Shown here: positions 20,261 to 35,607 of the stretch, piece after piece
How positions within the stretch are numbered: position 1 is the stretch's first letter
Layout: each line of letters opens with the position of its first letter
Virus record (IMG/VR): IMGVR_UViG_3300046048_000227
Location: 1-64,000 of that record
Direction: 5' to 3' (one strand)
DNA from: a virus
Length of the DNA stretch: 64,000 bases
The notes under the pieces: generated by a model
Told to the model about the DNA's origin: nothing
Seen by the model: the letters and a program-made list of their open reading frames with translations, nothing else
The model's database searches: none
Position numbers and translations under genes: made by a program

Positions 20261-20608
20261 ATGTCTATTACTTCACCAAGGAAGGCTGCAACAATAGAGA
20301 TTGTTAAGTTTAATCCTATTGAGTTGCGTATCGACACGGCAGCTACTAAAAAAGTCAAGACTAACCAGTATGTACAGGTTTTTTTACCTAGAATAGAAAG
20401 CAAAAGGTACCCTGACAGGAGAATACCAAGGCTTGGGATACAAATAAATGTCAAGAAACCGGAAGACGAAAGATTAGTAGAAGACTTTGCTTATTTGATA
20501 GTGTCTAGTGAGAGTGATTTGTACAAACACTGGAAAAACAGAGAAAAAGAAATAAACACAGGCATTTATATAGGAGATGTACTCATAGGAGCACCCTTGA
20601 CAATGTAA
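20261..20608 (+). CDS. Hypothetical protein
   Basis: RBS AGGAG, 115 aa. Confidence 0.7.
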   Translation: MSITSPRKAATIEIVKFNPIELRIDTAATKKVKTNQYVQVFLPRIESKRYPDRRIPRLGIQINVKKPEDERLVEDFAYLIVSSESDLYKHWKNREKEINTGIYIGDVLIGAPLTM

Positions 20609-20625
20609 ATAACTTGTGATATACT
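20597..20625 (+). promoter_or_regulatory. Sigma70-type promoter upstream of ncRNA/tRNA cluster
   Basis: TTGACA-17-TATACT, TGTG extension. Confidence 0.8.
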
Positions 20626-20636
20626 TAGTAATAACA

Positions 20637-20806
20637 GTGCCTTAAAAGTAATCACAGACTTGCGAGGCATTTTTGAACAGAAGATGTAGTACCTTAACAA
20701 CTGAAACATCGAGTACTAACGGTGTATGTGCACATCTGGGGAGACGCTGGTTGCCAAGCAACAAAGCACCGCGGAGAGAAGCAAGCGGAGGACTTGCATT
20801 AGTACT
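20637..20806 (+). ncRNA. Candidate structured RNA A
   Basis: Stems tgcct/aggca, gatgt/acatc enclosing AGTA..GAA, agtactaa/ttagtact multiloop. Confidence 0.5.
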
Positions 20807-20811
20807 ATCGA

Positions 20812-20886
20812 GGTGTCTATGGCGGAACTGGTAGACGCACCTAGCTGTGACCTAGGTTATTGTGGGTTCAAATCCCACTAGGCACC
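20812..20886 (+). tRNA. trnH: tRNA-His(GTG)
   Basis: G-1:C73, loop CT-GTG-AC. Confidence 0.93.
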
Positions 20887-20891
20887 CTTGT

Positions 20892-21044
20892 GTATTGCGA
20901 AGGACTAGAAGCCTTGGTACCTAGATAAAAAACAACAGTGGCTTCCTGATGAGTAAGCGTGGTGCACTTACCAAGTGTGTCCTGACAAGTGAGACACTAG
21001 ATTAAAACCTGTGCACTAGGTTTTAGTCCAACGTCACGCAATAC
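20892..21044 (+). ncRNA. Candidate structured RNA B (multibranch, possible kissing loop)
   Basis: gtattgcg/cgcaatac and ggacta/tagtcc close four hairpins. Confidence 0.6.
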
Positions 21045-21046
21045 TT

Positions 21047-21118
21047 TGAGGACTGCACTATGGCATTATCCTAGGAGGTAATAGACTGGGAGCGGGTGCA
21101 ACAGTTAGGCAGTCCTCA
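21047..21118 (+). ncRNA. Candidate small RNA closed by a 10-bp stem
   Basis: tgaggactgc/gcagtcctca. Confidence 0.45.
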
Positions 21119-21122
21119 CCCC

Positions 21123-21196
21123 GCCGTTCTGGTGTAAGTGGTCGGTCACATCTGTTTGAAAAACAGAAGGTTCTGGTTCGACTCCAGGGGGCGGCA
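21123..21196 (+). tRNA. trnF: tRNA-Phe(GAA)
   Basis: loop TT-GAA-AA, GTTCGAC. Confidence 0.9.
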
Positions 21197-21226
21197 CAAA
21201 AATATTAAAAAATTTTGGAGGCTGTT

Positions 21227-21547
21227 ATGTTTGACAAACAAGAATTATTTGAACAGTATCATCAAGCTTTACATCTTGGCAACTTAGATGCCAAAGAAGA
21301 AATCTTTAAGAAAGTACCAACGATCTTAGCCTACGTAAGGAAGCTTGAAAGAGACGTTGAAAGAGAAACAGAAAGAGCAGACACAGCCGAAGCAAAACTA
21401 ACGGTAGCTACGCCAAAGAAAAAAAGAACCCCTAAGCTAAAGGCTAAGGCTGAAGTAGTAGAGAAGGTTGAAGAGGTTGAAGTTCCTGATGAACTAGAAG
21501 ACGAAGAAGTATCAGCGGTTAGTCAGGACGAAGACTATCCGTTTTAA
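21227..21547 (+). CDS. Hypothetical coiled-coil protein with acidic tail ending DYPF
   Basis: RBS GGAGG; C-terminus resembles acidic-aromatic SSB-like tails. Confidence 0.7.
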   Translation: MFDKQELFEQYHQALHLGNLDAKEEIFKKVPTILAYVRKLERDVERETERADTAEAKLTVATPKKKRTPKLKAKAEVVEKVEEVEVPDELEDEEVSAVSQDEDYPF

Positions 21548-21557
21548 CATGTAACAT

Positions 21558-21631
21558 CTGGGTGTAGCTCAGACAGGAAGAGCACTGCGTTTGGGGCGCA
21601 GGGGCCAGTGGTTCAAATCCACTCTCCCAGA
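21558..21631 (+). tRNA. trnP: tRNA-Pro(TGG)
   Basis: loop TT-TGG-GG, C1:G72, A73. Confidence 0.92.
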
Positions 21632-21635
21632 CTAT

Positions 21636-21711
21636 GGTTTCGTGGTGTAGTTAGGGCTAACACACTTCCCTGTCAAGGAAGAGACCGCGGGTTCAAATCC
21701 CGTCGAAACCG
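21636..21711 (+). tRNA. trnD: tRNA-Asp(GTC)
   Basis: loop CT-GTC-AA, G73. Confidence 0.93.
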
Positions 21712-21716
21712 CTAGA

Positions 21717-21799
21717 GGCAATGTCGGTGCATGGGACACCAACCAGGCTGTAACCCTGGCGTCTTTATGGCTATGTAGGTTCGATTCCTATCGTTGCCA
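21717..21799 (+). tRNA. trnY: tRNA-Tyr(GTA)
   Basis: loop CT-GTA-AC, long variable arm. Confidence 0.88.
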
Positions 21800-21882
21800 C
21801 CTTGCTTGTGAGGACTCTCCTGTCCTGTTTGGGAGCGCAAGCACCCCCCACAGGTGATATCAGTGGGGGGAGAATATATACC

Positions 21883-21960
21883 GAGGCGGAGACCATGACA
21901 TGGTGTTCTTACAAATACCGAATTTGTACTTGGACACCATTACAAGTAGGTCTCCGCCTC
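21883..21960 (+). ncRNA. Candidate rod-like small RNA
   Basis: 12-bp gaggcggagacc/ggtctccgcctc plus nested atggtgttc/ggacaccat and tacaaat/atttgta. Confidence 0.5.
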
Positions 21961-21966
21961 AATCTC

Positions 21967-22037
21967 AGGCTATTCGGTTAATGGTAAACCAGCGGCTTCC
22001 AATCCCGCGACTGGAGGTTCGATCCCTTCATAGCCTG
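21967..22037 (+). tRNA. trnW: tRNA-Trp(CCA)
   Basis: AGGCTAT/ATAGCCT, G73, loop TT-CCA-AT with C31:C39 mismatch. Confidence 0.8.
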
Positions 22038-22044
22038 CCTGTAC

Positions 22045-22124
22045 TGCGGTGATAAAGTCTTGGTAGACTTGCCAGTTTCATATGCTGGTTCTTAAAAGGT
22101 GCAGTTCGATTCTGCTCACCGCTA
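22045..22124 (+). tRNA. Atypical tRNA with CAT anticodon (Met-like; 4-bp T stem, enlarged variable region)
   Basis: GCGGTGA/TCACCGC, ccagt-TTCATAT-gctgg, gcag-TTCGATT-ctgc. Confidence 0.7.
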
Positions 22125-22211
22125 CCTAGCTAAACAACTGTTCGACAACCCCCCTCATTTGGCTAGCCTGCTCTGAGCTAGCGACGATCCTTTACTGATA
22201 ATCAGAGCATC

Positions 22212-22499
22212 GGGGATGCAAGGCTTCGACAATGGTAATGATAGATGTACTGCGGGAAGAGCGGTGCCGATCTCTTTAACTCAGCACAACAACCATAACT
22301 GGCAAAAATTTTGCTAACCTTCTCATGATCAATGATCCTGAGCGTCACCTAGTTCCTCAACAGGCGGAGTTAGTACTGGCGTCATAATCCTGTGTAACAA
22401 AGTAATGCCCTGCTTTAGGCTGATCACCAACGATCTACTCCCGTAGATGTACTACCTTGATTGCAATTGGACTCCAGTTCGATTCTGGACATCTCCACC
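22212..22499 (+). ncRNA. ssrA: tmRNA; predicted tag (A)GKNFANLLMINDPERHLVPQQAELVLAS*
   Basis: 5' GGGGATG..GGCTTCGAC, 3' GGAC.CCAGTTCGATTCTGG.CATCTCCACC, G3:U pair; resume codon after ATAACT at 22301, stop 22385-22387. Confidence 0.92.
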
Positions 22500-22553
22500 T
22501 TTAAGGTGAGTAAGGGAAACTCTGGAGCGAGTCACTCCACCCTCTCACCTCCA

Positions 22554-22628
22554 GCTATTGTGAAGGGAATTGGCATACCTACGATACTAAGAATATCGTG
22601 ATTAGTGGTTCGAGTCCACTCAATAGCA
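22554..22628 (+). tRNA. trnL: tRNA-Leu(AAG), short variable loop
   Basis: cgata-CTAAGAA-tatcg, A73, variable region TGATT. Confidence 0.88.
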
Positions 22629-22632
22629 CTAT

Positions 22633-22715
22633 GTCGAAGTGGTGGAACTAGGTATACACGCAGCCTTTAGACCGCTGTGCCTTCGGGATTGCAGGTTCGA
22701 CTCCTGTCTTCGACA
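22633..22715 (+). tRNA. trnL: tRNA-Leu(TAG), long variable arm
   Basis: loop TT-TAG-AC, V-arm cc-ttcg-gg. Confidence 0.88.
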
Positions 22716-22903
22716 CAGCAGGTATTTGCGAAGCAACGGTAGACGCTTTATCCTTTGAGCTACGAGGGAAGAGCAGGGGCACAAGAAGCCCTTGCTCTTT
22801 TCCGTGTAGCATGGTATAATAATTGTAGCTTAGTGGGAACTTGCTTAAGGGGGAAGGGCAGGGACAAACCCCTGCCCTTTACTCTCAATTGAAAGGAAAT
22901 AAT

Positions 22904-23539
22904 ATGCCGATCATACAAGTAAAAGGTGAACTACCAAAACGGGTTGAACTGGATGTGTACCCAACCCCGATAGAATATACAAGAGCCGTTTTAAAATTTC
23001 TCCAGCTTTCTCATTACCCAATAGAAAGTTACGAGTACACACTAAGGATACTAGACCCAGGTGCTGGTTCAGGTATATGGGGTCAAGCTGTAAAAGAACT
23101 ATACCCACACGCAGAACTTCATGGTACTGAATTAAGAGATGTACCGCCTCCACCACACTACGATCATTGGCACATAGGAAAGTATGAGCTACTTCCTGAC
23201 ACAGTTGGTAAGTTCGATCTTATTGTAGGCAATCCCCCTTACTATGTACTAGAAGATTTCATGGACAAAAGCTTTGAGCTTTTACATGATTATGGAATGT
23301 TAAGTTTCCTTTTACCTGCCTCTTTTTCTGAGAGCAAGAAAAGGTACTTAAAATATTTTAGTAAGCAGGATTATTACAAACCTACAATGATCATTAACTC
23401 TGTCCGCAGGATAAGTTTCACTGGTGATGGCAAGTCTAATGCTACAGCCTACGCACAGTACACATGGGTTAAGCACGAAAAAATTAATGGAGACCCAGTA
23501 CCTACTTACTGGTTGGATTGGGAATATGACAAAGACTAG
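22904..23539 (+). CDS. DNA N6-adenine methyltransferase
   Basis: YPTP, LDPGAGSG (motif I), GNPPY (motif IV). Confidence 0.85.
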   Translation: MPIIQVKGELPKRVELDVYPTPIEYTRAVLKFLQLSHYPIESYEYTLRILDPGAGSGIWGQAVKELYPHAELHGTELRDVPPPPHYDHWHIGKYELLPDTVGKFDLIVGNPPYYVLEDFMDKSFELLHDYGMLSFLLPASFSESKKRYLKYFSKQDYYKPTMIINSVRRISFTGDGKSNATAYAQYTWVKHEKINGDPVPTYWLDWEYDKD

Positions 23540-24380
23540 TTCATTCGGTGTAAGCAAGAGAGAAAACCACGACGCTACAAGATTCTATGCTCGTAACGTA
23601 TATGATGAGTACTCCAGCTACGAACCTAGGCTACCGGAGGTGCCCGATCCTGAAGACTGGGCAAACGCTCTTATGTGCTCAGATGCTGCACACATAGATA
23701 TTCCTAGAGAAAGCATAGCTCTAACCTTCACATCTCCACCCTACAATGTCGGTAAAGAGTACGAAGAAGACATGACAAAGGATGAGTACGCTGAATTTTT
23801 ATATAACATAGGACTAGAGCTTTACGATGTTACTATTCCAGGGGGTAGGTTTGTTTTCAACACAGCAAACATAGGGCGTAAGCCTTACATTCCTTTAACT
23901 AAGCTTGCCTATGAAATCTTTGCTGATACCATAGGGTTTTTGCCTGCTGGAGAAATTATCTGGGTAAAAGGAAAAGGCGCAAGCGGTAGCTGTGCTTGGG
24001 GTAGCTGGAACAGTGCTAAAGCACCAAGATTACGTGATTTGCATGAGTACTTACTAGTTTTCTGTAAAGAGAACTACTCCAGGTATGACAAAGGCACCTC
24101 AACCATGGAAAAAGAAGAGTTCATGGAGAGTACCCTGTCTACGTGGTACATAGCACCAGAATCTGCTAAAAAAGTAGGGCACCCTGCTCCGTTCCCATTA
24201 GAGCTAGCTAAAAAAGTAATTAACTTGTTCTCTTACAAGGGAGATGTGATCCTTGATCCTTTTGTAGGCTCAGGCACAACATGTATAGCTGCTAAACAGC
24301 TAGAAAGGTACTATGTAGGCGTTGATTATACACAAGAGTACATAGACTTAGCACAAAAACGTATAGATACGCTGGCGTGA
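23526..24380 (+). CDS. Beta-class DNA amino-methyltransferase (likely N4-cytosine)
   Basis: TSPPYN precedes HPAPFP and LDPFVGSGTT. Confidence 0.9.
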   Translation: MTKTSSFGVSKRENHDATRFYARNVYDEYSSYEPRLPEVPDPEDWANALMCSDAAHIDIPRESIALTFTSPPYNVGKEYEEDMTKDEYAEFLYNIGLELYDVTIPGGRFVFNTANIGRKPYIPLTKLAYEIFADTIGFLPAGEIIWVKGKGASGSCAWGSWNSAKAPRLRDLHEYLLVFCKENYSRYDKGTSTMEKEEFMESTLSTWYIAPESAKKVGHPAPFPLELAKKVINLFSYKGDVILDPFVGSGTTCIAAKQLERYYVGVDYTQEYIDLAQKRIDTLA

Positions 24381-24445
24381 AGGGAAAAGGCATACCTACC
24401 TCACTTAAAATGAGGTGATTGGTGGTTCGAGTCCACCCGTCAGCA
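24371..24445 (+). tRNA. trnL: tRNA-Leu(TAA), short variable loop; contains stop codon of upstream MTase
   Basis: cctca-CTTAAAA-tgagg, A73. Confidence 0.9.
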
Positions 24446-24449
24446 CTAT

Positions 24450-24560
24450 GCTGTGAGAGTGATGGGTTAAGGGTTCGAGTCCCTCTCAAAGGTCGCTCCT
24501 TTGTAGCCTATCTAGTGAGTATACGCACGATGGTAAGTAGGTACAGCCCACTCTCACAGC
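24450..24560 (+). ncRNA. T-loop-containing tRNA-like small RNA (Y RNA-like candidate)
   Basis: 12-bp gctgtgagagtg/cactctcacagc enclosing aggg-TTCGAGT-ccct. Confidence 0.6.
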
Positions 24561-24589
24561 AGACAAACGAATTGAATAAGGAGTCTAAG

Positions 24590-24838
24590 ATGATTAGTGT
24601 GAAGCTAGCAGAAACTATTAAGGAAATGAAATTCCAATTAAAAGACCTTACTTATGAGAATTATACAAGTAGTCGTAACGCATTCATTGGCACAGTTAAT
24701 AATGGCGATGTGAGCTTATACCTTGTGTCATTCTCTAGAATAATAAAGGCAAATAACTTTAACAATACTTGGGCACACCCAGAGACTGAAGTGACTGTAA
24801 AAGAATGGGTTGATGTAACTATCACGGTAGACCAATGA
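24590..24838 (+). CDS. Hypothetical protein
   Basis: RBS AAGGAG before ATG 24590. Confidence 0.65.
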   Translation: MISVKLAETIKEMKFQLKDLTYENYTSSRNAFIGTVNNGDVSLYLVSFSRIIKANNFNNTWAHPETEVTVKEWVDVTITVDQ

Positions 24839-25512
24839 GTAACATACTAATCTACCAGATGGGTAGGGTAGGCAGTGTCGCAATTCGCAACTCATTGAAG
24901 GCTGAAGGAGTTAAAGCTACTCATCTACATTACATAATGACAGAAGGTGAGCATCCAGCTAGGCACTTACCAGAACTAAAGGAACAAATACTTGGACGTA
25001 AGGTGCCCTTCAAAATTATTGTTTTAGTACGCGACCCAATAGCTAGGAACATATCGGCTTTCTTCAGAACTCTTGACAATAGAGAATGGACAGGGTATAA
25101 TAGGAAATTGCTGAAGAAGTTTATGACAGAGTATAACCATGTCTGGGCATTAGCTTGGTTCGATCTAGAATTTAACCCTGCTTTCTTTGATATATATGCA
25201 ACATACTATAGTCCAGAACACAGTACTTATAAATTTCCTCCAGCAGATTTTATTATCCTTCGCACAGAAGACTTAAGTAAAAAAAGAACTGCTGACCAGC
25301 TTACTAGTTTCCTAGGAATAGAAAAAATACAAATTATTAAAGCTAACGCAACAGAGTACGCTCCTAAAAGAGCACCTTTGTATAAAGACTTCTTGGATAA
25401 TGTCAAGCTACCACTACACTACGTAGAGTACATGTACAACACCCCGTACACAACACAATTCTATACAGAAAAAGAGATAGAGAGAATGACTAAGCGTTGG
25501 ACAGGAGAATAA
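24835..25512 (+). CDS. Sulfotransferase-fold protein (NKWYS-like family), paralog 1
   Basis: IYQMGRVGS (5'-PSB-like loop), VRDPIARNISAFF (3'-PB-like), LRTEDL, Y...FYT..EI. Confidence 0.8.
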   Translation: MSNILIYQMGRVGSVAIRNSLKAEGVKATHLHYIMTEGEHPARHLPELKEQILGRKVPFKIIVLVRDPIARNISAFFRTLDNREWTGYNRKLLKKFMTEYNHVWALAWFDLEFNPAFFDIYATYYSPEHSTYKFPPADFIILRTEDLSKKRTADQLTSFLGIEKIQIIKANATEYAPKRAPLYKDFLDNVKLPLHYVEYMYNTPYTTQFYTEKEIERMTKRWTGE

Positions 25513-25716
25513 TATGAATCAAGACGTACTAAACACTTTATATTTTGAGCAGGCAGAAGCGCGCACAGTTGACCTACTTAACCAGTATTCAGGAAAGTTA
25601 ACACCACTAATAGAGAAGACGATAAAGAACGAGGTGTCTAGTAGGTACCCTACACTGACAGCAGGGGAGATCAACAGAGTGTATGGCAGAGCAGTAAGAA
25701 AATTTGGAGAGACAGT

Positions 25717-26409
25717 ATGCCAACATTGATTTACCAAATGGGAAAAGTAGGGTCGATATCCTTACTTAAAGGGCTAGCTGCTAACAAAGTAATATCAACA
25801 CATGCCCATAACCTAGTGAATGTTGAAGGAGAATTTTATGTATCACGGAACAAGGCTATAAAGGAAACTATTGAACTACGACTAGACCACTGGAAAGTAA
25901 TCTCACTAGTCAGAGACCCGATAGCTAGGAACATCTCAGCCTTTGTTCATAAACTATCTAAAAAAAACTACAAAGCATTTCCTAAGTATGATCCATACGT
26001 GCTGCATAGCTTATTTGTAAATAAGTATGACCACCATACTCCGCTTAGATGGTTTGATGAAGAGTTTAACTTATTGTTTGACAATGTATACTCTCGCAAG
26101 TTTAGACATAGAGGAAAGTATTTAAAAATCACCAACGCTGAAAAAAACTATGAAGCTTTAGTACTGCGAACAGAAGATTTAAACTGGTACCATAATGTAA
26201 TAAGAAGTTTTGTTGATATACCACACATTACTATGCCCCACTCTAACTCTATGGCAGAAAAGTTCTGGTTTTATAAAGAGTTCGTTGATTTTATGCGAGG
26301 GAAGATACCACATAGTATAGTTAATGCGCTATACAGCAGTAAGTATACCGAGCACTTTTACTCAAAAGAGGAGATACGGGAATTTGTAAGGTATTGGACG
26401 CTCATATGA
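25717..26409 (+). CDS. Sulfotransferase-fold protein (NKWYS-like family), paralog 2
   Basis: IYQMGKVGS, VRDPIARNISAF, WFDEE, YTEHFYS. Confidence 0.8.
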   Translation: MPTLIYQMGKVGSISLLKGLAANKVISTHAHNLVNVEGEFYVSRNKAIKETIELRLDHWKVISLVRDPIARNISAFVHKLSKKNYKAFPKYDPYVLHSLFVNKYDHHTPLRWFDEEFNLLFDNVYSRKFRHRGKYLKITNAEKNYEALVLRTEDLNWYHNVIRSFVDIPHITMPHSNSMAEKFWFYKEFVDFMRGKIPHSIVNALYSSKYTEHFYSKEEIREFVRYWTLI

Positions 26410-26474
26410 AGGGAATTGGCATACCTAGCATACTCAAAATATGCTGTTTCCTGGTTCGACTCCAGGTATGAGCA
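26400..26474 (+). tRNA. trnL: tRNA-Leu(CAA), short variable loop; contains upstream stop codon
   Basis: gcata-CTCAAAA-tatgc, A73. Confidence 0.9.
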
Positions 26475-26475
26475 C

Positions 26476-26504
26476 TTGACAAACGTAACATACTGTGGTA
26501 GTAT
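26476..26504 (+). promoter_or_regulatory. Sigma70-type promoter
   Basis: TTGACA-17-TAGTAT, TGTGG extension. Confidence 0.7.
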
Positions 26505-26590
26505 GGATATATTGTGGCTTATATACTAGTACTCCTGTTGCTTGCGCTTTGTCTAATCTTTGAGATTTTTGATCATCTCAGAGGCAAGTA

Positions 26591-26675
26591 GGAAGGTTGG
26601 CAGAGAGGAAATGCGTCTACTTGCTAAGTAGTAGCCGTCCTAACGGGTGCAGAGGTTCGATCCCTCTACCTTCCG
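26591..26675 (+). tRNA. trnS: tRNA-Ser(GCT)
   Basis: GGAAGGT/ACCTTCC, long V-arm, G73. Confidence 0.92.
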
Positions 26676-27287
26676 CCTAGATTTAGAGGAGTTATTATAT
26701 GGCAAAGAAAATGATATTAAGAAGAATGAACAACTCCCTACCTGAGTTAGTAAGCATGGTAAGAGAGAGCAAGCTAGAGAATAGAGTGTTCTTATGTAGG
26801 AAAGGGCCAGCTATCTTCACTAGTATGTTGTACTTTGCTAAGGCTGAAGACTTACTGAAAGGGGAAGAACCAAACATTCCTGGAATTGGTATGCTATTTT
26901 TTGTAACAGAAAAAGTCAGGCTCCCAGTAGGAGATGCAGATGAAGTAAACCTTATTTTATTAAAAGATTAGTGTAGTCTTGCGCTGGTCTAAGTTTAGAC
27001 TAGAGGAAGCTCAGGACTGCTCCGCTTAATGTAGGAGGATATATGACAGGTGAGTGTACCCACGAACACACAGCAACCTTTACTTATAATGACTGGGTAC
27101 ACCCAGAAACTAGAGAGGAAGTATGTCTAGACTGTCAGAAATCTGTTAGCACTACAGAGGCAGCGACACCAATAGACTCAGTGGGTGAGCGGCACGACAA
27201 GTCTGGTAGGTGGCACCCGCAAGGGACGGCACAGCCGTAGATAGATGCAAGACCACGACAGAATCCTGGCTATCGCACTAATCTTTA

Positions 27288-27316
27288 TTGACTTATCTTA
27301 CCATGTGTGGTATAAT
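27288..27316 (+). promoter_or_regulatory. Sigma70-type promoter
   Basis: TTGACT-17-TATAAT, TGTGG extension, just upstream of tRNA-Cys. Confidence 0.8.
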
Positions 27317-27324
27317 TACTTACT

Positions 27325-27396
27325 GACCTCGTAGCCAAGTGGGAAGGCGGGTGGTTGCAACCCATCTAAGCGCAGGTTCGATTCCAGCCGAGGTCT
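27325..27396 (+). tRNA. trnC: tRNA-Cys(GCA)
   Basis: loop TT-GCA-AC, U73. Confidence 0.92.
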
Positions 27397-27399
27397 CTA

Positions 27400-27471
27400 G
27401 CACCTATCGCCTAAAGGACGGGCACTTGCCTTCGAAGCTTGTCTGTGCAGGTTCGATCCCTGCTAGGTGCT
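27400..27471 (+). tRNA. trnR: tRNA-Arg(TCG), weak anticodon stem
   Basis: loop CT-TCG-AA; two U:U mismatches in stem. Confidence 0.78.
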
Positions 27472-27476
27472 CTTAC

Positions 27477-27550
27477 GCTCCCGTAGCTCAGAGGACTAGA
27501 GCAGTTCTCTTCTAAAGAAAAGGTCACAGGTTCGAGTCCTGTCGGGAGTG
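27477..27550 (+). tRNA. trnR: tRNA-Arg(TCT)
   Basis: loop CT-TCT-AA. Confidence 0.92.
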
Positions 27551-27689
27551 CCTATGAATGATGAATATAGAATAGTTTTTGACTACGAAATTGGTATGGA
27601 AGTCATAGAAATAGTGCCTCCTGCTGATCCTAATATATTAGAGGTATCAGAAGAGGCATTCAATGACTCCTTAGCAGAGTATATAGACA

Positions 27690-27762
27690 GTCCCTGTGGT
27701 TGAGCAGGACACAACACTACCCTGCGAAGGTAGAGACACAGGTTCGATCCCTGTCAGGGACT
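27690..27762 (+). tRNA. trnR: tRNA-Arg(GCG)
   Basis: ctacc-CTGCGAA-ggtag. Confidence 0.88.
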
Positions 27763-27768
27763 CTCTCA

Positions 27769-27842
27769 GGCTGTGTCGTCTACTTAGGTTAGGACAGGAG
27801 GCTTTCAACCTCCAGAACAGGGTTCGAATCCCTGCATAGCTA
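27769..27842 (+). tRNA. trnE: tRNA-Glu(TTC)
   Basis: ggagg-CTTTCAA-cctcc. Confidence 0.92.
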
Positions 27843-28121
27843 CTATAATGAAAATACAAAAGGAAGATGCGATGACAAACAGAACAATGTGCGACGTACT
27901 GCAAGAGATGCGTAAGCTAAACAAAACTCGTAACTACAGTGCACTGGCAGGTCTTATTGAAGAAGCACAGATACTTGGCAATCGCATGGAAGCAGCAGTG
28001 TACGATAAACATGATGTAGAACATTACAACAAAGAAAGAAGAAGATTAAAAGCAGAGCTAAAAAAACTTAAAGATACAAAAGATGCGCTAGAACTTGAGA
28101 TCAGTGAACTAGGAGGAGACG

Positions 28122-28550
28122 ATGGTTAGTAGAGCTACAGTATACTTAGCTGGCGGTATGCACAGTGACTGGCGAGAACAAGTTAAGATGGGAGTACAGC
28201 ACACAGTAAACTTTTTTGACCCCTGCACACATGGATTTAAATCAGAGGATGCTTATACCTTTTGGGACATACAAGCTATAAGAAAGTCTGACATAGTGTT
28301 TGCTTACATGGAACCAGATAACCCGTCCGGTGTAGGTTTGGCATTTGAAATAGGGTATGCTGTAGCTTTAGGACGTAGTGTTATTTTTGTGGATCAATCT
28401 TCTGAAGAAACTAGAAAATACTGGGGTATGTGTAGGGCAGCTAGCACTGTTACCACTACTAGTATAACTGAAGGTATTCACCTACTAAACTACACGATTG
28501 ACTTGATAACAGTAGACCCAAGTGTTGGAATATTACATCCTCCTGGGTAA
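28122..28550 (+). CDS. Nucleoside 2-deoxyribosyltransferase-like protein
   Basis: VYLAG, D..AI..SD, G...EIGYA.ALG. Confidence 0.82.
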   Translation: MVSRATVYLAGGMHSDWREQVKMGVQHTVNFFDPCTHGFKSEDAYTFWDIQAIRKSDIVFAYMEPDNPSGVGLAFEIGYAVALGRSVIFVDQSSEETRKYWGMCRAASTVTTTSITEGIHLLNYTIDLITVDPSVGILHPPG

Positions 28551-28615
28551 GGTGTTGCAGGATACATACCCGATTTGGATTCGGGAGTGCGTAGGTTCGA
28601 TCCCTACTGCCCAGA
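28543..28615 (+). tRNA. trnP: tRNA-Pro(TGG), second divergent copy; contains upstream stop codon
   Basis: cccga-TTTGGAT-tcggg; A37 instead of G37. Confidence 0.82.
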
Positions 28616-28677
28616 CTATATTTACTTATGTTTTAATTATATATGATTACGTGAAGTAATAACTGGAGAAGAAACTT

Positions 28678-29637
28678 ATGGGAAATAAGATGACTAAGTA
28701 CCAATACTTTATTACCTACGAGATACCAGACGCCGACATAAGTAGTTGGCAAGTAATAACCACAGAGCGACCCATTAAAACAACAAAGGATGTGTCTGCT
28801 ATCTTATCTCAAATTTTAATAATGGCAGAAGCTGATCCACCAATCAAGCCACTGAGCATATCATACTTGAGTGAGTACAACATAGAGCTACCCGATAGTG
28901 TCATACTATACCAGATGGGTAGAGTTGGTTCAGTATCTTTGAGATCAGCGTTAGAAAGTTTAGAGATACCAACAAGGCATGTACATTACCTAGCAGACTA
29001 CGGGGAGTACGAATCCAAGCACGATCCTGCTTTCATGAAAAGGATTAAGACAGAAGAAAGAGTATGGACAGTAATAAGTGTTGTAAGAAATCCTATAGCT
29101 AGAAACTTATCTGCTTTCTTCTGGAATATTAATAAGTATTACCCAGACATTGATAAGTACCCAGACTATAGCCCACCATTACTCGACGCTTTCTTATATA
29201 AGTATCCACACTTTACTACTTCTGATTGGTTTGATAACGAGCTTAACAAAGTATTTGACTACGATATATACTCTAAACCTTTCGAGCACAGTATAGGATA
29301 CACCTTATACGAGCGTCTAGTAGAGAAGCCTAAGTTTATTCTGGCTGTAATAAGAACAGAAGATATATCACGTTCTGCAAACAGCATGTTTAGCGATCTA
29401 CTAGGAGTGAAGCCAAAAGACCCAATAGGTAATGTTAACCTAACACATAAAAGAAAAGCAGTGTCTAGAGCTTTCTTAGATTTTCATAAAGAAGCAGTAC
29501 TACCTAAATATTACTTAGACAATATGTTAAACACTAAGTACTGCCAACATTTCTATACTGATGAGGAGAGGGGTAAACTATATGATTACTGGACTAGCAA
29601 TCCTGCTAGCAGAGAGGGATATTCGTCTAATGGATAG
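28678..29637 (+). CDS. Sulfotransferase-fold protein (NKWYS-like family), paralog 3, with ~70-aa N-terminal extension
   Basis: LYQMGRVGS, VRNPIARNLSAFF, WFDNE, IRTEDI, YCQHFYT. Confidence 0.8.
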   Translation: MGNKMTKYQYFITYEIPDADISSWQVITTERPIKTTKDVSAILSQILIMAEADPPIKPLSISYLSEYNIELPDSVILYQMGRVGSVSLRSALESLEIPTRHVHYLADYGEYESKHDPAFMKRIKTEERVWTVISVVRNPIARNLSAFFWNINKYYPDIDKYPDYSPPLLDAFLYKYPHFTTSDWFDNELNKVFDYDIYSKPFEHSIGYTLYERLVEKPKFILAVIRTEDISRSANSMFSDLLGVKPKDPIGNVNLTHKRKAVSRAFLDFHKEAVLPKYYLDNMLNTKYCQHFYTDEERGKLYDYWTSNPASREGYSSNG

Positions 29638-29687
29638 GACAGTTGGTTCTCAACCAGCAGATAGGGGTTCAATCCCCCTATATCCTA
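29616..29687 (+). tRNA. trnE: tRNA-Glu(CTC); contains upstream stop codon
   Basis: gttgg-TTCTCAA-ccagc. Confidence 0.9.
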
Positions 29688-30189
29688 CTTGGAGGTGTCT
29701 ATGGCAACTTTGCACTATGAAAAAATGAGCAACTTCTTAGACAGGTCTAGGAAAGACATTACTGAAGGTGAGTTTAAAGACAGGCTTATGGCTGTGTACA
29801 AAGATATCAACGAAGAGACCAGAGATAGAATGTACGCAGCTTCTAAAAAACTAGGAGGAACAGGCAGTTTCTACCAAGTGCTATTTGTATTTGATACCCT
29901 ATATATGTTAGGACTAGAGGAGTGTAATGGCGAAAGCTAAACAACCATATGAACGTCCAGTAAAAAAAGATTCTCCAGAACTACCAGAGTACAAGAAAGA
30001 GTACAACCAGTTACACTCAATAGTTAAAATAGGAAATATTGTACAAGTTGATATTCGTAAGATGGACGGCTGCTGGAAACTAGCAACTGTCGAAGGTGTT
30101 GTAGAAAAGATAAACATTAACTCAATGAAACTGTCTGGTAGAGACTTTGCCATCCCTTGGTACACTATACATGACTGGGAGATATTAGA

Positions 30190-30615
30190 ATGACTAAAGC
30201 AGCTAAGCTAAGTAAAACACAAGAGTATCAAGACTGGACAGTGCGAACAGCTATATATAGAGACAGCATAGAAGAATACTTAGAAGATCAGCACGCTAAA
30301 AACTCTAACAGAAATTACCCAAAAATACCAGGGGCTAATTACGAAGCTCTCATGCTTGAGATACTATATTTATCTAGCGGTCTTGGTGGAGAAACAGGAG
30401 AAGTTCAAAACCAAATTAAAAAATTAATTAGAGATGGGTACACAGATAGCATTAAAGATAAAATACATGACGAACTGGGTGATGTATTGTGGTATGTAGC
30501 TAGGTTATGTGCTACTCTAGGTCTTGACATGGAAGAAGTTATGCAGTATAATAGGGAAAAGCTTGAGAAGAGACAAGCTGAAGGTAAGTTAAAAGGATCA
30601 GGAGATAACCGATAA
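30190..30615 (+). CDS. MazG-like nucleoside triphosphate pyrophosphohydrolase
   Basis: GL.GETGEV...IKK..RD, ELGDVLWY, N.EKL..R, GSGDNR. Confidence 0.88.
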   Translation: MTKAAKLSKTQEYQDWTVRTAIYRDSIEEYLEDQHAKNSNRNYPKIPGANYEALMLEILYLSSGLGGETGEVQNQIKKLIRDGYTDSIKDKIHDELGDVLWYVARLCATLGLDMEEVMQYNREKLEKRQAEGKLKGSGDNR

Positions 30616-30688
30616 GCGTTTATAGTTCAGTAGGTAGAACGTCTGCTTGCCAAGTAGAAGGTCGTGGGTTCGACCCCCACTAAACGCT
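30616..30688 (+). tRNA. trnG: tRNA-Gly(GCC)
   Basis: loop TT-GCC-AA, U73. Confidence 0.93.
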
Positions 30689-30987
30689 CACAATAACTAT
30701 GACTATACTAGACACATTCCCATTCACAAGACTTGAGTACATGCAGAGCGTAAGTCCTGTTGTCAACCATATATATGAAACAACAGCACCAACAAGCACA
30801 ATTGTATCTCTCTTAGTAGACCCCGTTGGGAAAGACTACTTAGTTAGAAAGTTTAAAGACATAGTTGGAGCTAAAGAAGTACCGCTACTTCGAGATAAAA
30901 ATACTGGTGGGTTGTATCCAGTAACGGCTGTTAGACAATTAAAAGACGGTAGGGTACAGGCTTTTATCCTACTAACCCAAAAATAGC

Positions 30988-31016
30988 TTGACAATAAAGG
31001 TAAAGTACTTTACAAT
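30988..31016 (+). promoter_or_regulatory. Sigma70-type promoter for tRNA-Ser / large ncRNA / tRNA-Ser / rtcB unit
   Basis: TTGACA-17-TACAAT. Confidence 0.8.
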
Positions 31017-31035
31017 AATAGTTGATAATAAATTC

Positions 31036-31125
31036 GGAAGGTTGACAGAATCTGGTATTGTGACGGCTTTGAATACCGATGCCTACCGCAAGATAGTGGG
31101 AGTTCGAATCTCTCACCTTCCGCCA
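31036..31125 (+). tRNA. trnS: tRNA-Ser(TGA) with encoded CCA
   Basis: GGAAGGT/ACCTTCC-GCCA, long V-arm. Confidence 0.88.
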
Positions 31126-31643
31126 GATGCGATCAGGATATAGCCTCGCCTGATAAATGGTGCATGAATCACGGCTCCCGCTAACCAACGAGCGGAAAAA
31201 ATTTGTGCAGCACCACACCTGCTACTGTGCCTAATGGTAGTTTTCCTCAGAGCACTAGGGGTGCAGCCAGCGTAAGCTGGAAGGCTTGTTCGAGACAAGC
31301 TGAGGAAACTGCAACTCATGTGGGGCGTCTCTCCCCAGAGAACCATGAGAAAAAGGTGTGACCCTGAGACCACACTTGGCAAAGGGAGACTGTCAGGAGA
31401 GACTGACACCCAAAGGTTCCTCCCTGTTGAAAGAGTCCCTGATGACTCTGACTGTTTGGGGCACAAGACTAAGACCCCTGCGAAAGCTGAACTTTCTAAA
31501 TAGGGAGGTCTACGCGGAAGTGTACAATGATGTACCATCTAGACTTAGCGGTTGACGATGAGGGAGCGAAACCCTACTTCTGCTCTAGCCTTACCTACCA
31601 TGTGTAGGAAAAGATCGTGGATCGTAGTAATGCGATCCATGCA
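31126..31643 (+). ncRNA. Large (~515 nt) ornate ncRNA, GOLLD/ROOL-like candidate
   Basis: More than 15 stems, nested multiloops, GNRA and T-loop-like loops; bounded by two tRNAs. Confidence 0.75.
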
Positions 31644-31731
31644 GGAAGGTTGGCAGAGAGGAAATGTGACCGCCTGGAAAGCGGTAGCCTACGGTAATAC
31701 CGTAGCGAAGGTTCGATCCCTTCACCTTCCG
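31644..31731 (+). tRNA. trnS: tRNA-Ser(GGA)
   Basis: accgc-CTGGAAA-gcggt, long V-arm. Confidence 0.92.
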
Positions 31732-31749
31732 CCTAATAAGGAGTAGAGA

Positions 31750-32916
31750 ATGACTTTAGTATTCGGCAAGCACGATGAGAGCACATTAGAGCAGATGGAA
31801 CTAGCAACTTCAGATGAGTCAGTAGTAGCGTCTGTGCTATGTGCTGATGGGCACCTAGGGTACTCAGTACCTATCGGCGGAGTAATAGCCTACGATGGTA
31901 TGATCAATCCTGCTGGCGTTGGTTACGACATAGCTTGTGGCAACATGGCTGTGCGCCTACAAAATCAGGACGGTTTATCTGATCTTGTCGTGCACAATAT
32001 AGCAGAAATTATGGACACCATTGTTGATGAGATTGCCTTTGGGGTAGGGAAAGAAAATAAATACCCAGTAGACCATGACTTATTCAACTCTTCTGCTTGG
32101 CATATTGACGCAGTAAGCCCACTAAAAGAAACAGCCCATAAACAGCTAGGTACTGTAGGTTCAGGCAATCACTTTGTAGATATATTTATTGATGACGATG
32201 GAAGTATCTGGATAGGTGTTCACTTTGGTTCACGAGGGCTAGGGCATAAAATAGCTACCCACTATGTAAAAGAAGCTGGAGGTAAGCAGGGAGCACTAGC
32301 AGTACCAGCCCTACTTGATGAAAATTCTTACGCAGGAGAAGAGTATATAGCTGCTATGAACTTAGCTGGTAACTATGCTTATGCTGGTCGTGAATGGGTA
32401 GTCAACAAAGTTCTCGATATCATAGGTGCTGAAGCTGCCCACACAGTACACAATAACCACAACTTTGCGTGGAAAGAAAAACACTTCGGAGAACATTTAT
32501 GGGTAGTGCGTAAAGGCTCCACTCCAGCATTTCCAGGTCAGTACAGTTTTATTGGTGGCTCCATGGGTGATGTGTCTGTAATTGTAAAAGGCAGAGAAAC
32601 ACCCCTGAGCGAAAGAGCTATGTACTCTACAGTACACGGTGCTGGCAGAGTAATGTCCCGAACTGAGGCGGCTGGTAAAACTAAATATAACAAAACAACT
32701 AAGCAAAGAGAGCGAGTATCAGACGGTGCTATTTCTAAAGAAGACATGCTAAGTAGATTAAAAAACTTTGGTGTTGAGCTACGAGGAGGAGGACTAGATG
32801 AAGCACCTCAAGCATACCGCGATTTAGCTACAGTACTTCAGCACCAAAAAAATACAATAGACATAGTAACTGTACTGAACCCTATAGGCGTAGCTATGGC
32901 AGGGCAAGGTGTGTAA
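31750..32916 (+). CDS. rtcB: RtcB RNA ligase
   Basis: D.HLGY..PIG, GVGYDIACG, LGT.G.GNHF, H.GSRG.G, HN, RKG.TPA, HGAGR.MSR, DEAP.AY. Confidence 0.97.
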   Translation: MTLVFGKHDESTLEQMELATSDESVVASVLCADGHLGYSVPIGGVIAYDGMINPAGVGYDIACGNMAVRLQNQDGLSDLVVHNIAEIMDTIVDEIAFGVGKENKYPVDHDLFNSSAWHIDAVSPLKETAHKQLGTVGSGNHFVDIFIDDDGSIWIGVHFGSRGLGHKIATHYVKEAGGKQGALAVPALLDENSYAGEEYIAAMNLAGNYAYAGREWVVNKVLDIIGAEAAHTVHNNHNFAWKEKHFGEHLWVVRKGSTPAFPGQYSFIGGSMGDVSVIVKGRETPLSERAMYSTVHGAGRVMSRTEAAGKTKYNKTTKQRERVSDGAISKEDMLSRLKNFGVELRGGGLDEAPQAYRDLATVLQHQKNTIDIVTVLNPIGVAMAGQGV

Positions 32917-33169
32917 TGCCCAAAGCAGTGATGTGCACAGGGGCACTAGACTTAACAGTAGACGAAAAGCCCATTGACTATAACGAAGTTGATGGAATTT
33001 GGGGAGAGCGACCCACTGGGCGCAAACGTATACGGTTAAGATGCCCTAAGTGTAAACGAAAACTATGGTCATCCATAAGTGTGCACGACACTACAGTATT
33101 CCACGCACTGCCCCCCCACAAACCCAAAGGTTGGTGGAAGAAGAAAAAGAAAGTAGGCAGAAAAAGAAA

Positions 33170-33385
33170 ATGAAATACGAGACCGTCAACCACCCTGAGC
33201 ACTATAATAAGCATCCTTCTGGTGTAGAAGCTATAGATATTATAGAGCACTTTAACTTTAATATTGGTAACGCTATTAAATATCTATGGCGATCTGGTCT
33301 TAAGCCTGGACATGGTACAACAGAGGATTTAAAAAAAGCTTTATGGTACATTAACAGAGAAATAGAAAGAGTAGAGCCTCTATAG
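33170..33385 (+). CDS. DUF3310-family protein
   Basis: VNHP.HY...G.EAID, GNAIKYLWR...K, EDLKKA.WY. Confidence 0.88.
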   Translation: MKYETVNHPEHYNKHPSGVEAIDIIEHFNFNIGNAIKYLWRSGLKPGHGTTEDLKKALWYINREIERVEPL

Positions 33386-33448
33386 ATCAATGGATAGATC
33401 ACCAGCCTTTTAAGCTGTGAGATTCTGGTTCGAGTCCAGATGGGGGTA
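33376..33448 (+). tRNA. trnK: tRNA-Lys(TTT); contains upstream stop codon
   Basis: loop CT-TTT-AA. Confidence 0.9.
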
Positions 33449-33452
33449 CTAT

Positions 33453-33531
33453 GCGGGTGTAGTCGGCGCGGTTTCCTAAACCGTTACCCGTAGAGGAACT
33501 GAGAAGGTGGGTTCGACCCCCACCACCCGCT
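33453..33531 (+). tRNA. D-armless tRNA-like RNA, anticodon CCT (Arg), extended variable region
   Basis: GCGGGTG/CACCCGC; only 8 nt before gcggt-TTCCTAA-accgt; gtggg-TTCGACC-cccac. Confidence 0.75.
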
Positions 33532-33890
33532 CTTGAGAGGAGGTACTATGACAAGCTATACACAAAAACAGTTAGACCGTCTACCATTATGGGCACAATA
33601 CGAGATTGCGCGATTGAAGAGTAATGAAGAGTACTATAAAAAACACTTTAACAAGACCGTTACTGGCACTTCTGGCATAGCAGTGTACACTATTGCAGAC
33701 GACTATGCTGAACCTGCTGGCTATCTACCTGGATTTAGTTATGTAAAAATGAACGGTATTAGGATAAAATTATCAGAAAAGATAGGAGCACATAAGGGTT
33801 TAATTGAGGTTAGTTGTTCAGATCAGCTAGTATTTCTTACAGGATCAGCTAACCAAGCGTATATAACGCACGAAAAATTTTAGTTAGCCT

Positions 33891-33964
33891 GCCTTCATAG
33901 CACAACTGGATAGTGCAAGCGACTCTTAATCGCGAGGTTGATGGTTCAAGTCCATCTGAGGGCA
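33891..33964 (+). tRNA. trnK: tRNA-Lys(CTT)
   Basis: loop CT-CTT-AA. Confidence 0.92.
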
Positions 33965-34038
33965 CTGTAATCTTTGGGACACTATAAGACTTGCTGGTTG
34001 GGTGGAGTCCCTTATGTGACGACTGAAACCAGCACCAA

Positions 34039-34111
34039 TCCTGGGTAGCTCAATTGGCGGAGCGACTAGCTGTTAACTAGAGGGTTGTGGGTTCGAGTCC
34101 TACCCCAGGAG
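34039..34111 (+). tRNA. trnN: tRNA-Asn(GTT)
   Basis: TCCTGGG/CCCAGGA, G73, loop CT-GTT-AA. Confidence 0.93.
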
Positions 34112-34116
34112 CCTTT

Positions 34117-34188
34117 GCCTTCTAAGCATTTACGGTGATGCAGTGGCTTTGTAACCCACAGAAATCAGTTCAGGTCTGATAGAAGGCT
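34117..34188 (+). tRNA. trnT: tRNA-Thr(TGT), atypical T loop TTCAGGT
   Basis: GCCTTCT/AGAAGGC, loop TT-TGT-AA. Confidence 0.82.
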
Positions 34189-34194
34189 CTTTAT

Positions 34195-34269
34195 ACCCCT
34201 TTAGCTCGGTTCGGTTAGAGCACTCCTCTGATAAGGGAAAGGTCGTTGGTTCGAATCCAACAAGGGGTA
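34195..34269 (+). tRNA. trnI: tRNA-Ile(GAT)
   Basis: loop CT-GAT-AA. Confidence 0.92.
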
Positions 34270-34313
34270 CTGATGATGAGTCTGAATGAAAACTATAGTA
34301 AAAGGAGATTAAG

Positions 34314-34700
34314 ATGAAGAAGATTTTGCTTGTACTATTCCTCCTGATTATTTTATTGACAAGCTGCAACTCGGAGGCAAATGTCGCATCAAATAATGTG
34401 TCAAGAGCCGCAGACCAGTTTGAGATCATGCGACGCATTGTGTTTTATAACGGGATAAACGGCGACTATGTACTTGTCATAGAGGGGCTTTGTTCACTTG
34501 GCAACTTTGACGAGATGGGGGAGTTGTCTGTAACCTGCAAGACAGGTTCCTCAGAATATAAGAAACACTATCTAGGGCTATCTGATAACGTTACATACTT
34601 TGCAGAACAACTTGAACCTGCTAAGGCTAATGCTTATCATTATAGGGTCATCTTTCGACCCACTACCATTATTCCTGACGTTGAGATTGACTTGCCCTAG
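34314..34700 (+). CDS. Conserved phage lipoprotein
   Basis: MKK plus hydrophobic stretch plus lipobox LTSC; AD.FE..RR..F.NGI, KHYLGLSDNVTY. Confidence 0.8.
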   Translation: MKKILLVLFLLIILLTSCNSEANVASNNVSRAADQFEIMRRIVFYNGINGDYVLVIEGLCSLGNFDEMGELSVTCKTGSSEYKKHYLGLSDNVTYFAEQLEPAKANAYHYRVIFRPTTIIPDVEIDLP

Positions 34701-35115
34701 AGCACTTATATGAAAAAATATATTACTTTGCGAATAGACATTGATATGACTGTGAATGAAGCTGACTTATTCCTTTTCTTTCCAGAAACAATAAGTAAAG
34801 TAGCTGACCCAACATTAAGTGGCTATGACTTAGGCGAAGTCGAAGACTTAATTGGGTACGATCTATTTTGTATTGTTGAAGATGCAGCAGAACCTGCTTT
34901 TTGGCAAGGAATATTTAAACGCAGAGAAGGATATAATAGTAGAGCTTTATCAATAACAGCAAACCTATTAGTTAGAGCTAGTCAATTCAGGGATCAAATA
35001 CGAATGGAGATAAGTTTAGAAGGAAGAGGAGGTACTTTGTTTTCCTTTCCTACAAGATATATAAACTCAGGAGATTCAGTAACTATACACAATGCTACAC
35101 TAGGCTTAACATTCG

Positions 35116-35496
35116 ATGAGTAAAATCCCTGTAATGGAAGCAAGGGTAGCGGTAGTGGGCGGCAGAAATTTTGATAACTACTACTTGCTTAAGGATGTGC
35201 TCAACGCTTATAGAAAAAAACACGGTATATCTAAGATCATATCTGGTGGTGCGAAAGGTGCAGACACACTAGCAGAGAAGTACGCTAAAGAATTTGAGAT
35301 CGACTACGTAGTGTACGTAGCGAAGTGGGAGAAGCACGGTAAGAGTGCTGGCTATAAGAGAAACAAAAAGATAGTAGATGCTTGTGACATAGTGATGGCA
35401 TTCCCAGATAAAATGAGCAAGGGAACGTACCACACAATAGAATTAGCAGAGAACGCACTCAAACCTGTATGGATATTTAGATCATGGGAGGCATAG
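35116..35496 (+). CDS. SLOG-superfamily protein (DUF2493/YspA-like)
   Basis: V.GGR.F..Y, ISGGAKGAD.LA, W..HGK.AG..RN, GT. Confidence 0.88.
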   Translation: MSKIPVMEARVAVVGGRNFDNYYLLKDVLNAYRKKHGISKIISGGAKGADTLAEKYAKEFEIDYVVYVAKWEKHGKSAGYKRNKKIVDACDIVMAFPDKMSKGTYHTIELAENALKPVWIFRSWEA

Positions 35497-35559
35497 CTCA
35501 ACGGCTAGAGCACCATTCTCATAAAATGTAGGGTGTGGGTTCGACTCCCTCTGCCTCCA
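35487..35559 (+). tRNA. tRNA with CAT anticodon (Met or Ile2); contains upstream stop codon
   Basis: GGAGGCA/TGCCTCC, loop CT-CAT-AA. Confidence 0.88.
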
Positions 35560-35567
35560 CAAATACG

Positions 35568-35590
35568 CCCCCCTTTGACGGGGGGTTTTT
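35568..35590 (+). terminator. Rho-independent terminator ending the tRNA island
   Basis: C-run/G-run hairpin followed by T-tract. Confidence 0.75.
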
Positions 35591-35594
35591 ACTT

Positions 35595-35607
35595 TCGATT
35601 GTAGATA
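35595..35607 (+). promoter_or_regulatory. Putative phage late-promoter motif TCGATTGTAGATA
   Basis: Identical copies at 37299-37311 (+) and 59295-59307 (-), each intergenic and upstream of late-type genes. Confidence 0.65.

Follow-up and report, generated by a model that had tools for sequence, protein, structure and literature searches.

In the window analysed here, the first 64 kb (64,000 nt) of the 101,694-bp phage genome with direct terminal repeats recorded in IMG/VR as IMGVR_UViG_3300046048_000227, six Pfam-supported genes and one open reading frame (ORF) of 49 amino acids (aa) stop inside the next tRNA, and two further genes stop on the base preceding a tRNA (30615 and 49249). This geometry is probably the outcome of compaction, in which co-transcribed mRNA/tRNA units have been packed to their functional limit with stop codons supplied free by conserved tRNA positions. 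A sequence-only reading of the same DNA had listed these junctions and proposed that tRNA maturation turns the upstream mRNAs into non-stop messages, as a programmed off-switch or for tagging by the transfer-messenger RNA (tmRNA) of the phage; it added as a caveat that compaction and the free stops of U8-R9-R10 might account for the pattern. The caveat turned out to be the better explanation. A programmed switch or tagging device linked to tmRNA is not supported, because the overlaps show no association with tmRNA, arise at the same rate as gene-to-gene overlaps and carry shallow stops, and because one of two testable orthologs and all the distant homologs have stops of their own.

Genes that end inside or against the next tRNA

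The stop positions, counted from the tRNA start given by ARAGORN, confirmed base for base all the stop coordinates of the sequence-only reading, including its claim that four stops (MTase, sulfotransferase-like 2, DUF3310 and SLOG) lie exactly at tRNA nt 8-10 (Table 1). Every ORF at the junctions has a complete TAA, TAG or TGA in the DNA. Since all the named junction genes have Pfam matches (MTase, NKWYS/sulfotransferase, NDT, DUF3310, SLOG and MazG), we regard them as real genes; the likely start of the DUF3310 gene is the ATG at 33170, which overlaps the preceding stop. In the MTase, 6 residues follow the Pfam domain up to the C-terminus, and sulfotransferase-like gene 3 has about the same end point as its distant homologs; the tRNA should accordingly contribute only 2-7 residues to the proteins. 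On the RNA side, the tRNAs at the overlap junctions have clean acceptor stems of 7 bp, and their 5' boundaries are therefore firm. Rfam confirmed 29 of the 33 tRNAs called by ARAGORN in the window, with tRNA-Leu(caa) scoring under the gathering threshold and tRNA-Leu(taa) barely over it.

The 49-aa ORF is an uncertain gene. It encodes an acidic protein, its ATG comes 1 nt past the tRNA(CUA) at 27477-27552, its sole Shine-Dalgarno-like sequence, GGGAG, sits within the 3' end of that tRNA, and no homolog was found among the loci fetched. Two other ORFs with TTG starts, 20673-20834 (53 aa) and 21802-21981 (59 aa), stop at nt 20-22 of tRNA-His and at nt 13-15 of tRNA-Trp, respectively, and were not counted because their translations look non-coding (rich in Cys, Leu and Arg, with no Shine-Dalgarno sequence).

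Table 1. Junction genes, RNA genes and transcription signals of the window (positions in nt)
Feature	Position	Strand	Remarks
N6/N4 DNA methyltransferase (MTase)	23424..24380	+	TGA 24378-24380 = nt 8-10 of tRNA-Leu(taa) 24371-24446
Sulfotransferase-like (NKWYS) gene 2	25717..26409	+	TGA 26407-26409 = nt 8-10 of tRNA-Leu(caa) 26400-26475
49-aa ORF	27554..27703	+	TGA 27701-27703 = nt 12-14 of tRNA-Arg(gcg) 27690-27763
Nucleoside 2-deoxyribosyltransferase-like gene (NDT)	28122..28550	+	TAA 28548-28550 = nt 6-8 of tRNA-Pro 28543-28616
Sulfotransferase-like gene 3	28678..29637	+	TAG 29635-29637 = nt 20-22 of tRNA-Glu(ctc) 29616-29688
MazG-like gene	30190..30615	+	TAA ends on base preceding tRNA-Gly(gcc) 30616-30689
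DUF3310 gene	33065..33385	+	TAG 33383-33385 = nt 8-10 of tRNA-Lys(ttt) 33376-33449
SLOG/YspA-like gene	35116..35496	+	TAG 35494-35496 = nt 8-10 of tRNA-Met 35487-35560
Zinc-ribbon gene, 72 aa	49031..49249	+	Starts 11 nt past tRNA-Gly(tcc) 48946-49019; ends on base preceding tRNA-Val 49250-49323
Near-abutting gene	21227..21547	+	Own stop ends 10 nt ahead of tRNA-Pro 21558
Near-abutting gene	33548..33883	+	Own stop ends 7 nt ahead of tRNA-Lys(ctt) 33891
tRNA/tmRNA island	19913..35595	+	31 tRNAs, 1 tmRNA, ~25 interleaved genes; closed by intrinsic terminator
One-piece phage tmRNA	22212..22499	+	ARAGORN; Rfam RF00023
Promoter-like sequence	27288-27316		Ahead of tRNA-Cys
Promoter-like sequence	30988-31016		Ahead of tRNA-Ser
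Extended -10 promoters (TGTGGTATAAT)	27305-27316 and 48926-48937		End 8-10 nt ahead of tRNA-Cys and tRNA-Gly(tcc)
Consensus promoter	30524-30552		Inside 3' end of MazG-like gene
Terminator, GC-rich hairpin and T-run	35567..35595	+	7 nt past tRNA-Met; only strong terminator

Borrowed stops in the first 22 nt of tRNAs

In tRNA-rich phages, genes frequently take their stop from within the first 22 nt of a tRNA, and they do so non-randomly. The survey covered a tRNA-rich sample of 19 genomes, made up of this phage and another 18, taken as whole genomes or contigs (8 from cultured phages), in which we scored every tRNA preceded by an ORF of at least 80 codons; gene-tRNA overlaps were found in 12 of the 19. 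None of the 30 overlaps in this sample goes beyond tRNA nt 22, and in 21 the stop ends at nt 10. Entry in a random frame would meet a stop by nt 22 in only 41.7% of cases (p=4e-12), and the bias holds when each genome is given one observation (p=3e-5). The script does detect deeper overlaps, those of 24, 53 and 54 nt having been seen in extra loci. If RNase P always acted first, the position of a stop within the tRNA would be invisible to selection, and the bias thus points to ribosomes that read the uncut precursor. Indirect as it is, this evidence agrees with selection acting on what is translated from uncut RNA and suggests that the borrowed stops are used as real stops on unprocessed transcripts, not as parts of designed non-stop messages. 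Long read-in appears to be selected against, through a junk tail on the protein or through disturbed folding of the tRNA. With ribosomes entering unprocessed tRNA precursors, as the bias suggests, one and the same RNA may be contested by translation and tRNA maturation.

Such stops are easily available. A TAG, TAA or TGA is present at nt 8-10 in 19 of the 33 tRNAs of this phage, and 60% of 420 tRNAs carry a stop at nt 8-10 in frame 1. Within this genome alone, the ending at nt 8-10 of 4 of the 9 genes that reach a tRNA boundary is not significant (p=0.075).

The presence of tmRNA in the sample genomes was scored with RF00023, and the association test omits G002, an incomplete contig that gave no tmRNA hit, and keeps the incomplete contigs G001 and G003. 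Overlapping junctions numbered 16 of 40 in tmRNA-positive and 10 of 37 in tmRNA-negative genomes (p=0.33); after adding 15 tRNA-rich loci found by the 5' motif of tmRNA, the numbers were 22 of 65 and 10 of 37 (p=0.51). The correlation of overlaps with phage ssrA, which the sequence-only reading had put forward as a check, is thus absent within the power of the sample. Overlaps are present in tmRNA-less phages, including the complete metagenomic phages G004 (3 of 4 junctions) and G005 (3 of 6) and the tmRNA-negative Pseudomonas phage KIL2, and depositor annotation gives two cases in cultured phages without tmRNA, namely Gordonia phage Aphelion, whose HNH gene gp25 runs to nt 10 of tRNA-Asn, and Tenacibaculum phage Gundel_1, in which an HNH gene ends at nt 15 of tRNA-Pro. 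Conversely, the tmRNA-positive phages Francob of Streptomyces (0 of 8) and Calle (0 of 2) have none. The overlap pattern, which is shared by unrelated phages rich in tRNAs, appears to be neither special to this phage nor tied to tmRNA.

Packing of the island

The 33 tRNAs and the tmRNA that ARAGORN identified in the window are all on the + strand, and the two tRNAs outside the island lie at 48.9-49.3 kb. Among 125 same-strand neighbouring gene pairs, as defined by a crude ORF-based gene caller, about 50% overlap, and the gene-to-tRNA junctions overlap at a rate (6 of 11) that does not differ from it (Fisher p=1.0). Inside the island, the ORF list gives gene-to-gene overlaps of 1, 4, 8 and 13 nt, and overlaps of 1-14 nt are the rule there. 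The spacer ahead of a tRNA is 10 nt or less except for the longer ones (30-85 nt), which coincide with promoter-like sequences. Two extended -10 promoters of the type TGTGGTATAAT are so near to the RNA genes that transcripts of tRNA-Cys and tRNA-Gly(tcc) would have next to no 5' leader. Downstream of tRNAs, most of the next genes supported by a Shine-Dalgarno sequence begin 11-30 nt on, which leaves little beyond the room for that sequence. The gene-tRNA junctions have no terminator and mostly no spacer, and there is no room for terminators; the terminator at 35567 marks the SLOG-tRNA-Met junction as the 3' end of a transcription unit. Taken together, all kinds of junctions in the island are packed to the limit, and the 5' end of the tRNA happens to donate the stop.

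A leader structure directed against the tRNA was considered as a device to delay processing and rejected. The predicted pairing probability of the acceptor stem in the presence of a 60-nt leader hardly differed between overlapped tRNAs (0.52) and the others (0.53), giving no hint of such a device.

Orthologs of the overlapping genes

The only relative found was G001, a 75-kb IMG/VR sequence with about 42% protein identity, in which the tRNAs around a tmRNA (134.7 bits) follow the same order; 4 of its 9 junctions overlap and 2 abut. One of its sulfotransferase-like genes ends at nt 8-10 of a short tRNA-Leu; its ortholog of sulfotransferase-like gene 3, however, ends at a stop of its own with no adjoining tRNA. 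NDT is absent from G001, and a different gene overlaps tRNA-Glu(ctc), at nt 20-22 as in this phage. None of the 21 distant sulfotransferase-like metagenome homologs (36% identity or less) has a tRNA nearby, and they end at about the same residue. As to the conservation of the overlaps in orthologs, on which the sequence-only reading had also laid weight, one of the two testable G001 orthologs does overlap a tRNA; the other, together with the 21 distant homologs, has its own stop. The overlap therefore belongs to the place, that is, to the tRNA island, and not to the gene.

Searches for further relatives gave only four distant loci with RtcB and none with the SLOG protein, and a metagenome scan with the sulfotransferase-like alignment for close relatives gave only homologs of 36% identity or less. 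Only two public runs contain the phage, both sediment DNA metagenomes with no RNA run among them, and one of the two is likely its source; the contigs of both runs showed no informative variation at the gene-tRNA junctions.

Compaction with free stops as the probable explanation

The following course of events would account for the geometry. The spacer ahead of the tRNAs would have been lost until the gene ended against the tRNA or read a few codons into it, where conserved tRNA positions could supply a stop triplet free, mostly U8-R9-R10 and less often nt 6-8, 12-15 or 20-22. Genes and tRNAs presumably share primary transcripts, on which the first ribosomes would terminate in the ordinary way at the stop carried by the tRNA, as long as the latter is still unfolded or occupied. 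Folding of the tRNA and a cut by RNase P at +1 would follow, and the upstream message would lose both its stop and its protective 3' structure; the ribosomes left on the cut mRNA would need trans-translation by host or phage tmRNA together with host SmpB, and the mRNA would decay. Because no terminator and mostly no spacer separates gene from tRNA, a cut at +1 would leave the last cistron stop-less, and we infer on the sound grounds of established enzymology that RNase P cleavage would strip these mRNAs of their stops. In our reading, this loss is a tolerated side effect of packing, which at most sets a mild and unspecific limit to expression, and not a device built around tmRNA.

Several points weigh against this explanation. 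tmRNA was found in 6 of 18 genomes of the tRNA-rich sample, as compared with 2.3% of phages (PMC9004378). Overlap rates vary greatly, from the 0 of 8 of Francob to 5 of 6 (overlapping or abutting) in G006, and do not simply track the crude estimate of gene-to-gene overlap, so that packing alone may not explain which lineages overlap. The six high-overlap IMG/VR genomes were all retrieved via one unusual tRNA-Leu motif and are perhaps not independent. Frame 1 remains enriched with the near-abutting junctions included, and this enrichment fits free stops but equally positive selection for overlap. Lastly, compaction offers no reason for selection to tolerate stop loss on processing.

Alternative readings

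The overlap might itself be selected because maturation by RNase P ends the productive life of the upstream mRNA, as a programmed negative control or timer by which expression of the accessory genes of the island would be kept brief or weak, no matter which tmRNA cleans up. Such a timer is unlikely, although a related mechanism has been put forward for segB of T4 and for the homing endonucleases encoded in tRNA clusters of T5 (PMC2330249) and the overlapped genes here are all accessory, of nucleotide or modification type. The absence of a terminator and mostly of a spacer makes coupling between the two RNAs unavoidable, and overlaps are not depleted in comparison with gene-to-gene overlaps, which means that they are at least not selected against; yet they are no more frequent than the general overlap rate of the genome. 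If the mRNA were normally cut first, the position of the stop would not matter, but all 30 overlaps stop within 22 nt. The ordinary stops of the G001 ortholog of sulfotransferase-like gene 3 and of its distant homologs, and the equal predicted leader folding of overlapped and other tRNAs, also speak against a timer. More doubtful still is the wider proposal that tRNA maturation serves as a timer for packed accessory mRNAs and that the resulting load of stalled ribosomes is why tRNA-rich phages often carry tmRNA. Should it be true that tRNA processing limits the expression of island genes, this would be a cheap and general regulatory principle and would give a reason for phage tmRNAs.

The second alternative concerns the tmRNA of the phage, which the sequence-only reading had named alongside these junctions; it lies in the same island and proved genuine. 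It scores 106 bits with RF00023 (gathering threshold 47), covers model positions 1-374 and is not truncated. Its acceptor is tRNA-Ala-like, the 5' GGGGAUG pairing with the 3' CAUCUCC to give G3:U70, and a T-arm of the GGUUCGAUUC type is seen in the Rfam alignment. ARAGORN predicts a resume codon and a tag frame of 28 codons plus stop. Canonical tmRNA tags have about 10 residues and end in AA. The predicted tag of this phage is unusually long, with 28 residues ending in LAS, and has the core N-F-x-N ... P-x-R-H-L ... Q in common with the tag of G001, which has 23 residues; both lack the Ala-Ala end (22212-22499 of the window; L029 7063-7342). No SmpB gene was found in this phage. Phage-encoded tmRNAs occur in 2.3% of phage genomes, and the roles proposed for them are the upkeep of the hijacked translation machinery or the tagging of host proteins (PMC9004378). 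The tmRNA described here agrees with them in being a one-piece molecule with all Rfam hallmarks that is embedded among phage tRNAs, but that report draws no link to tRNA-overlapping genes.

Given a real tmRNA within the island, an unusual tag with a core common to G001 and the enrichment of tmRNA in the tRNA-rich sample, the stop-less products could be meant for tagging by the phage itself, the 28-residue tag either destroying them or providing a functional tail. We consider this very improbable: overlaps and tmRNA are not associated in either form of the test, with the tmRNA-positive Francob and Calle lacking overlaps and the tmRNA-negative G004, G005, Aphelion, Gundel_1 and KIL2 having them, the phage has no SmpB and the tmRNA of the host would compete, and the shallow-stop bias stands against it as well.

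That gene and tRNA moved jointly as one mobile cassette, like pairs of homing endonuclease and tRNA, is the least credible reading, for although the annotated cases in cultured phages are HNH endonucleases and the junction of a sulfotransferase-like gene with a short tRNA-Leu is found in both this phage (G000) and G001, no overlapped gene here is an endonuclease, the similarity of the three tRNA-Leu paralogs begins at tRNA nt 7-8 and does not reach the upstream genes, and in G001 different genes precede the same tRNAs.

Comparison with known systems

The junctions of genes with tRNAs may be compared with three known systems. In mitochondrial tRNA punctuation, tRNAs flank the coding regions on polycistronic transcripts and their excision by RNase P and RNase Z defines the mRNA ends; animal mitochondrial mRNAs often have incomplete T or TA stops that are completed by polyadenylation. 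The island likewise has one-strand coding regions flanked by tRNAs with no or minimal spacer, the genes and tRNAs abutting or overlapping, but here the stops are complete in the DNA and supplied by the tRNA, and many units have their own sigma-70-like promoters.

For T4 segB, it has been proposed that maturation of tRNA-Arg cuts the mRNA between the last sense codon and the stop, lowering expression, and a defective product of the cut mRNA was also proposed (Brok-Volchanskaya et al. 2008, PMC2330249); the endonuclease ORFs in the T5 tRNA cluster were cited as a similar case (PMC2330249). Control of segB by tRNA processing has the standing of a proposal. In common with the phage described here, segB is a protein gene within a phage tRNA cluster that is transcribed as part of a tRNA precursor, and the junction ORFs of the island are likewise embedded in a tRNA cluster without a terminator of their own ahead of the tRNA. 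The TAA of segB, however, ends 5 nt ahead of +1 of tRNA-Arg (RefSeq and ARAGORN) and not inside the tRNA, a single homing endonuclease is so placed in T4 as against six to seven non-endonuclease genes plus two abutting ones here, and T4 has no tmRNA. The T4 segB paper was the only one that a literature search on phage tRNA punctuation, or on stops of coding sequences (CDS) within phage tRNAs, brought up.

In the case of E. coli arfA, endonucleolytic processing gives a stop-less mRNA, the product of which is subject to tmRNA; the protein functions in its truncated form, in a loop that senses the activity of tmRNA (PMC10107115). The phage junctions differ in that the shallow-stop bias points, if indirectly, to selection on a full-length product ending at the tRNA-borne stop, and in that the overlaps show no association with phage tmRNA to match the functional tie of arfA. 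No small ORF ending in a tRNA resembles a small basic rescue factor, and an ArfA-like protein was rejected as a candidate, since the small ORFs ending in tRNAs are either acidic (the 49-aa ORF) or non-coding in appearance.

As a practical consequence, annotation pipelines that forbid overlap between CDS and tRNA will mis-end genes of this kind.

Other features of the island and the phage

The DNA polymerase of the phage has at most 31-32% identity with that of any cultured phage, megablast against cultured phages gave no match for this phage, and a PHROGs scan of the large ORFs was mostly empty.

The tRNA-Leu paralogs at 22554-22629, 24371-24446 and 26400-26475 are 76 nt each, with the anticodons AAG, UAA and CAA, respectively. 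They combine a short variable arm with A73 and an odd D-arm, two of them fall under the Rfam tRNA gathering score, and a normal long-arm tRNA-Leu(UAG) adjoins them. The DNA motif of these short genes retrieved 12 IMG/VR contigs, G001 among them, which share the odd D-arm motif with this phage.

The tRNA with the amber-reading CUA anticodon at 27477-27552 is well formed (Rfam 62.8 bits). Recoding of stop codons through this tRNA was considered and rejected: the longest ORFs become hardly longer when TAG is taken as sense, and TAG ends 38 of the 134 called genes. With TAG read through, the DUF3310 and SLOG genes would grow by only 4 codons.

An RtcB RNA ligase gene (31750-32916; Pfam 224 bits) begins 16 nt past tRNA-Ser(gga) within the island, and RtcB homologs are also present in the tRNA-rich phages G003, G006, Aphelion, Weasels2 and Calle. 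Lastly, the island holds three diverged NKWYS/sulfotransferase-like paralogs (24835-25512, 25717-26409 and 28678-29637), and G001 likewise has three.

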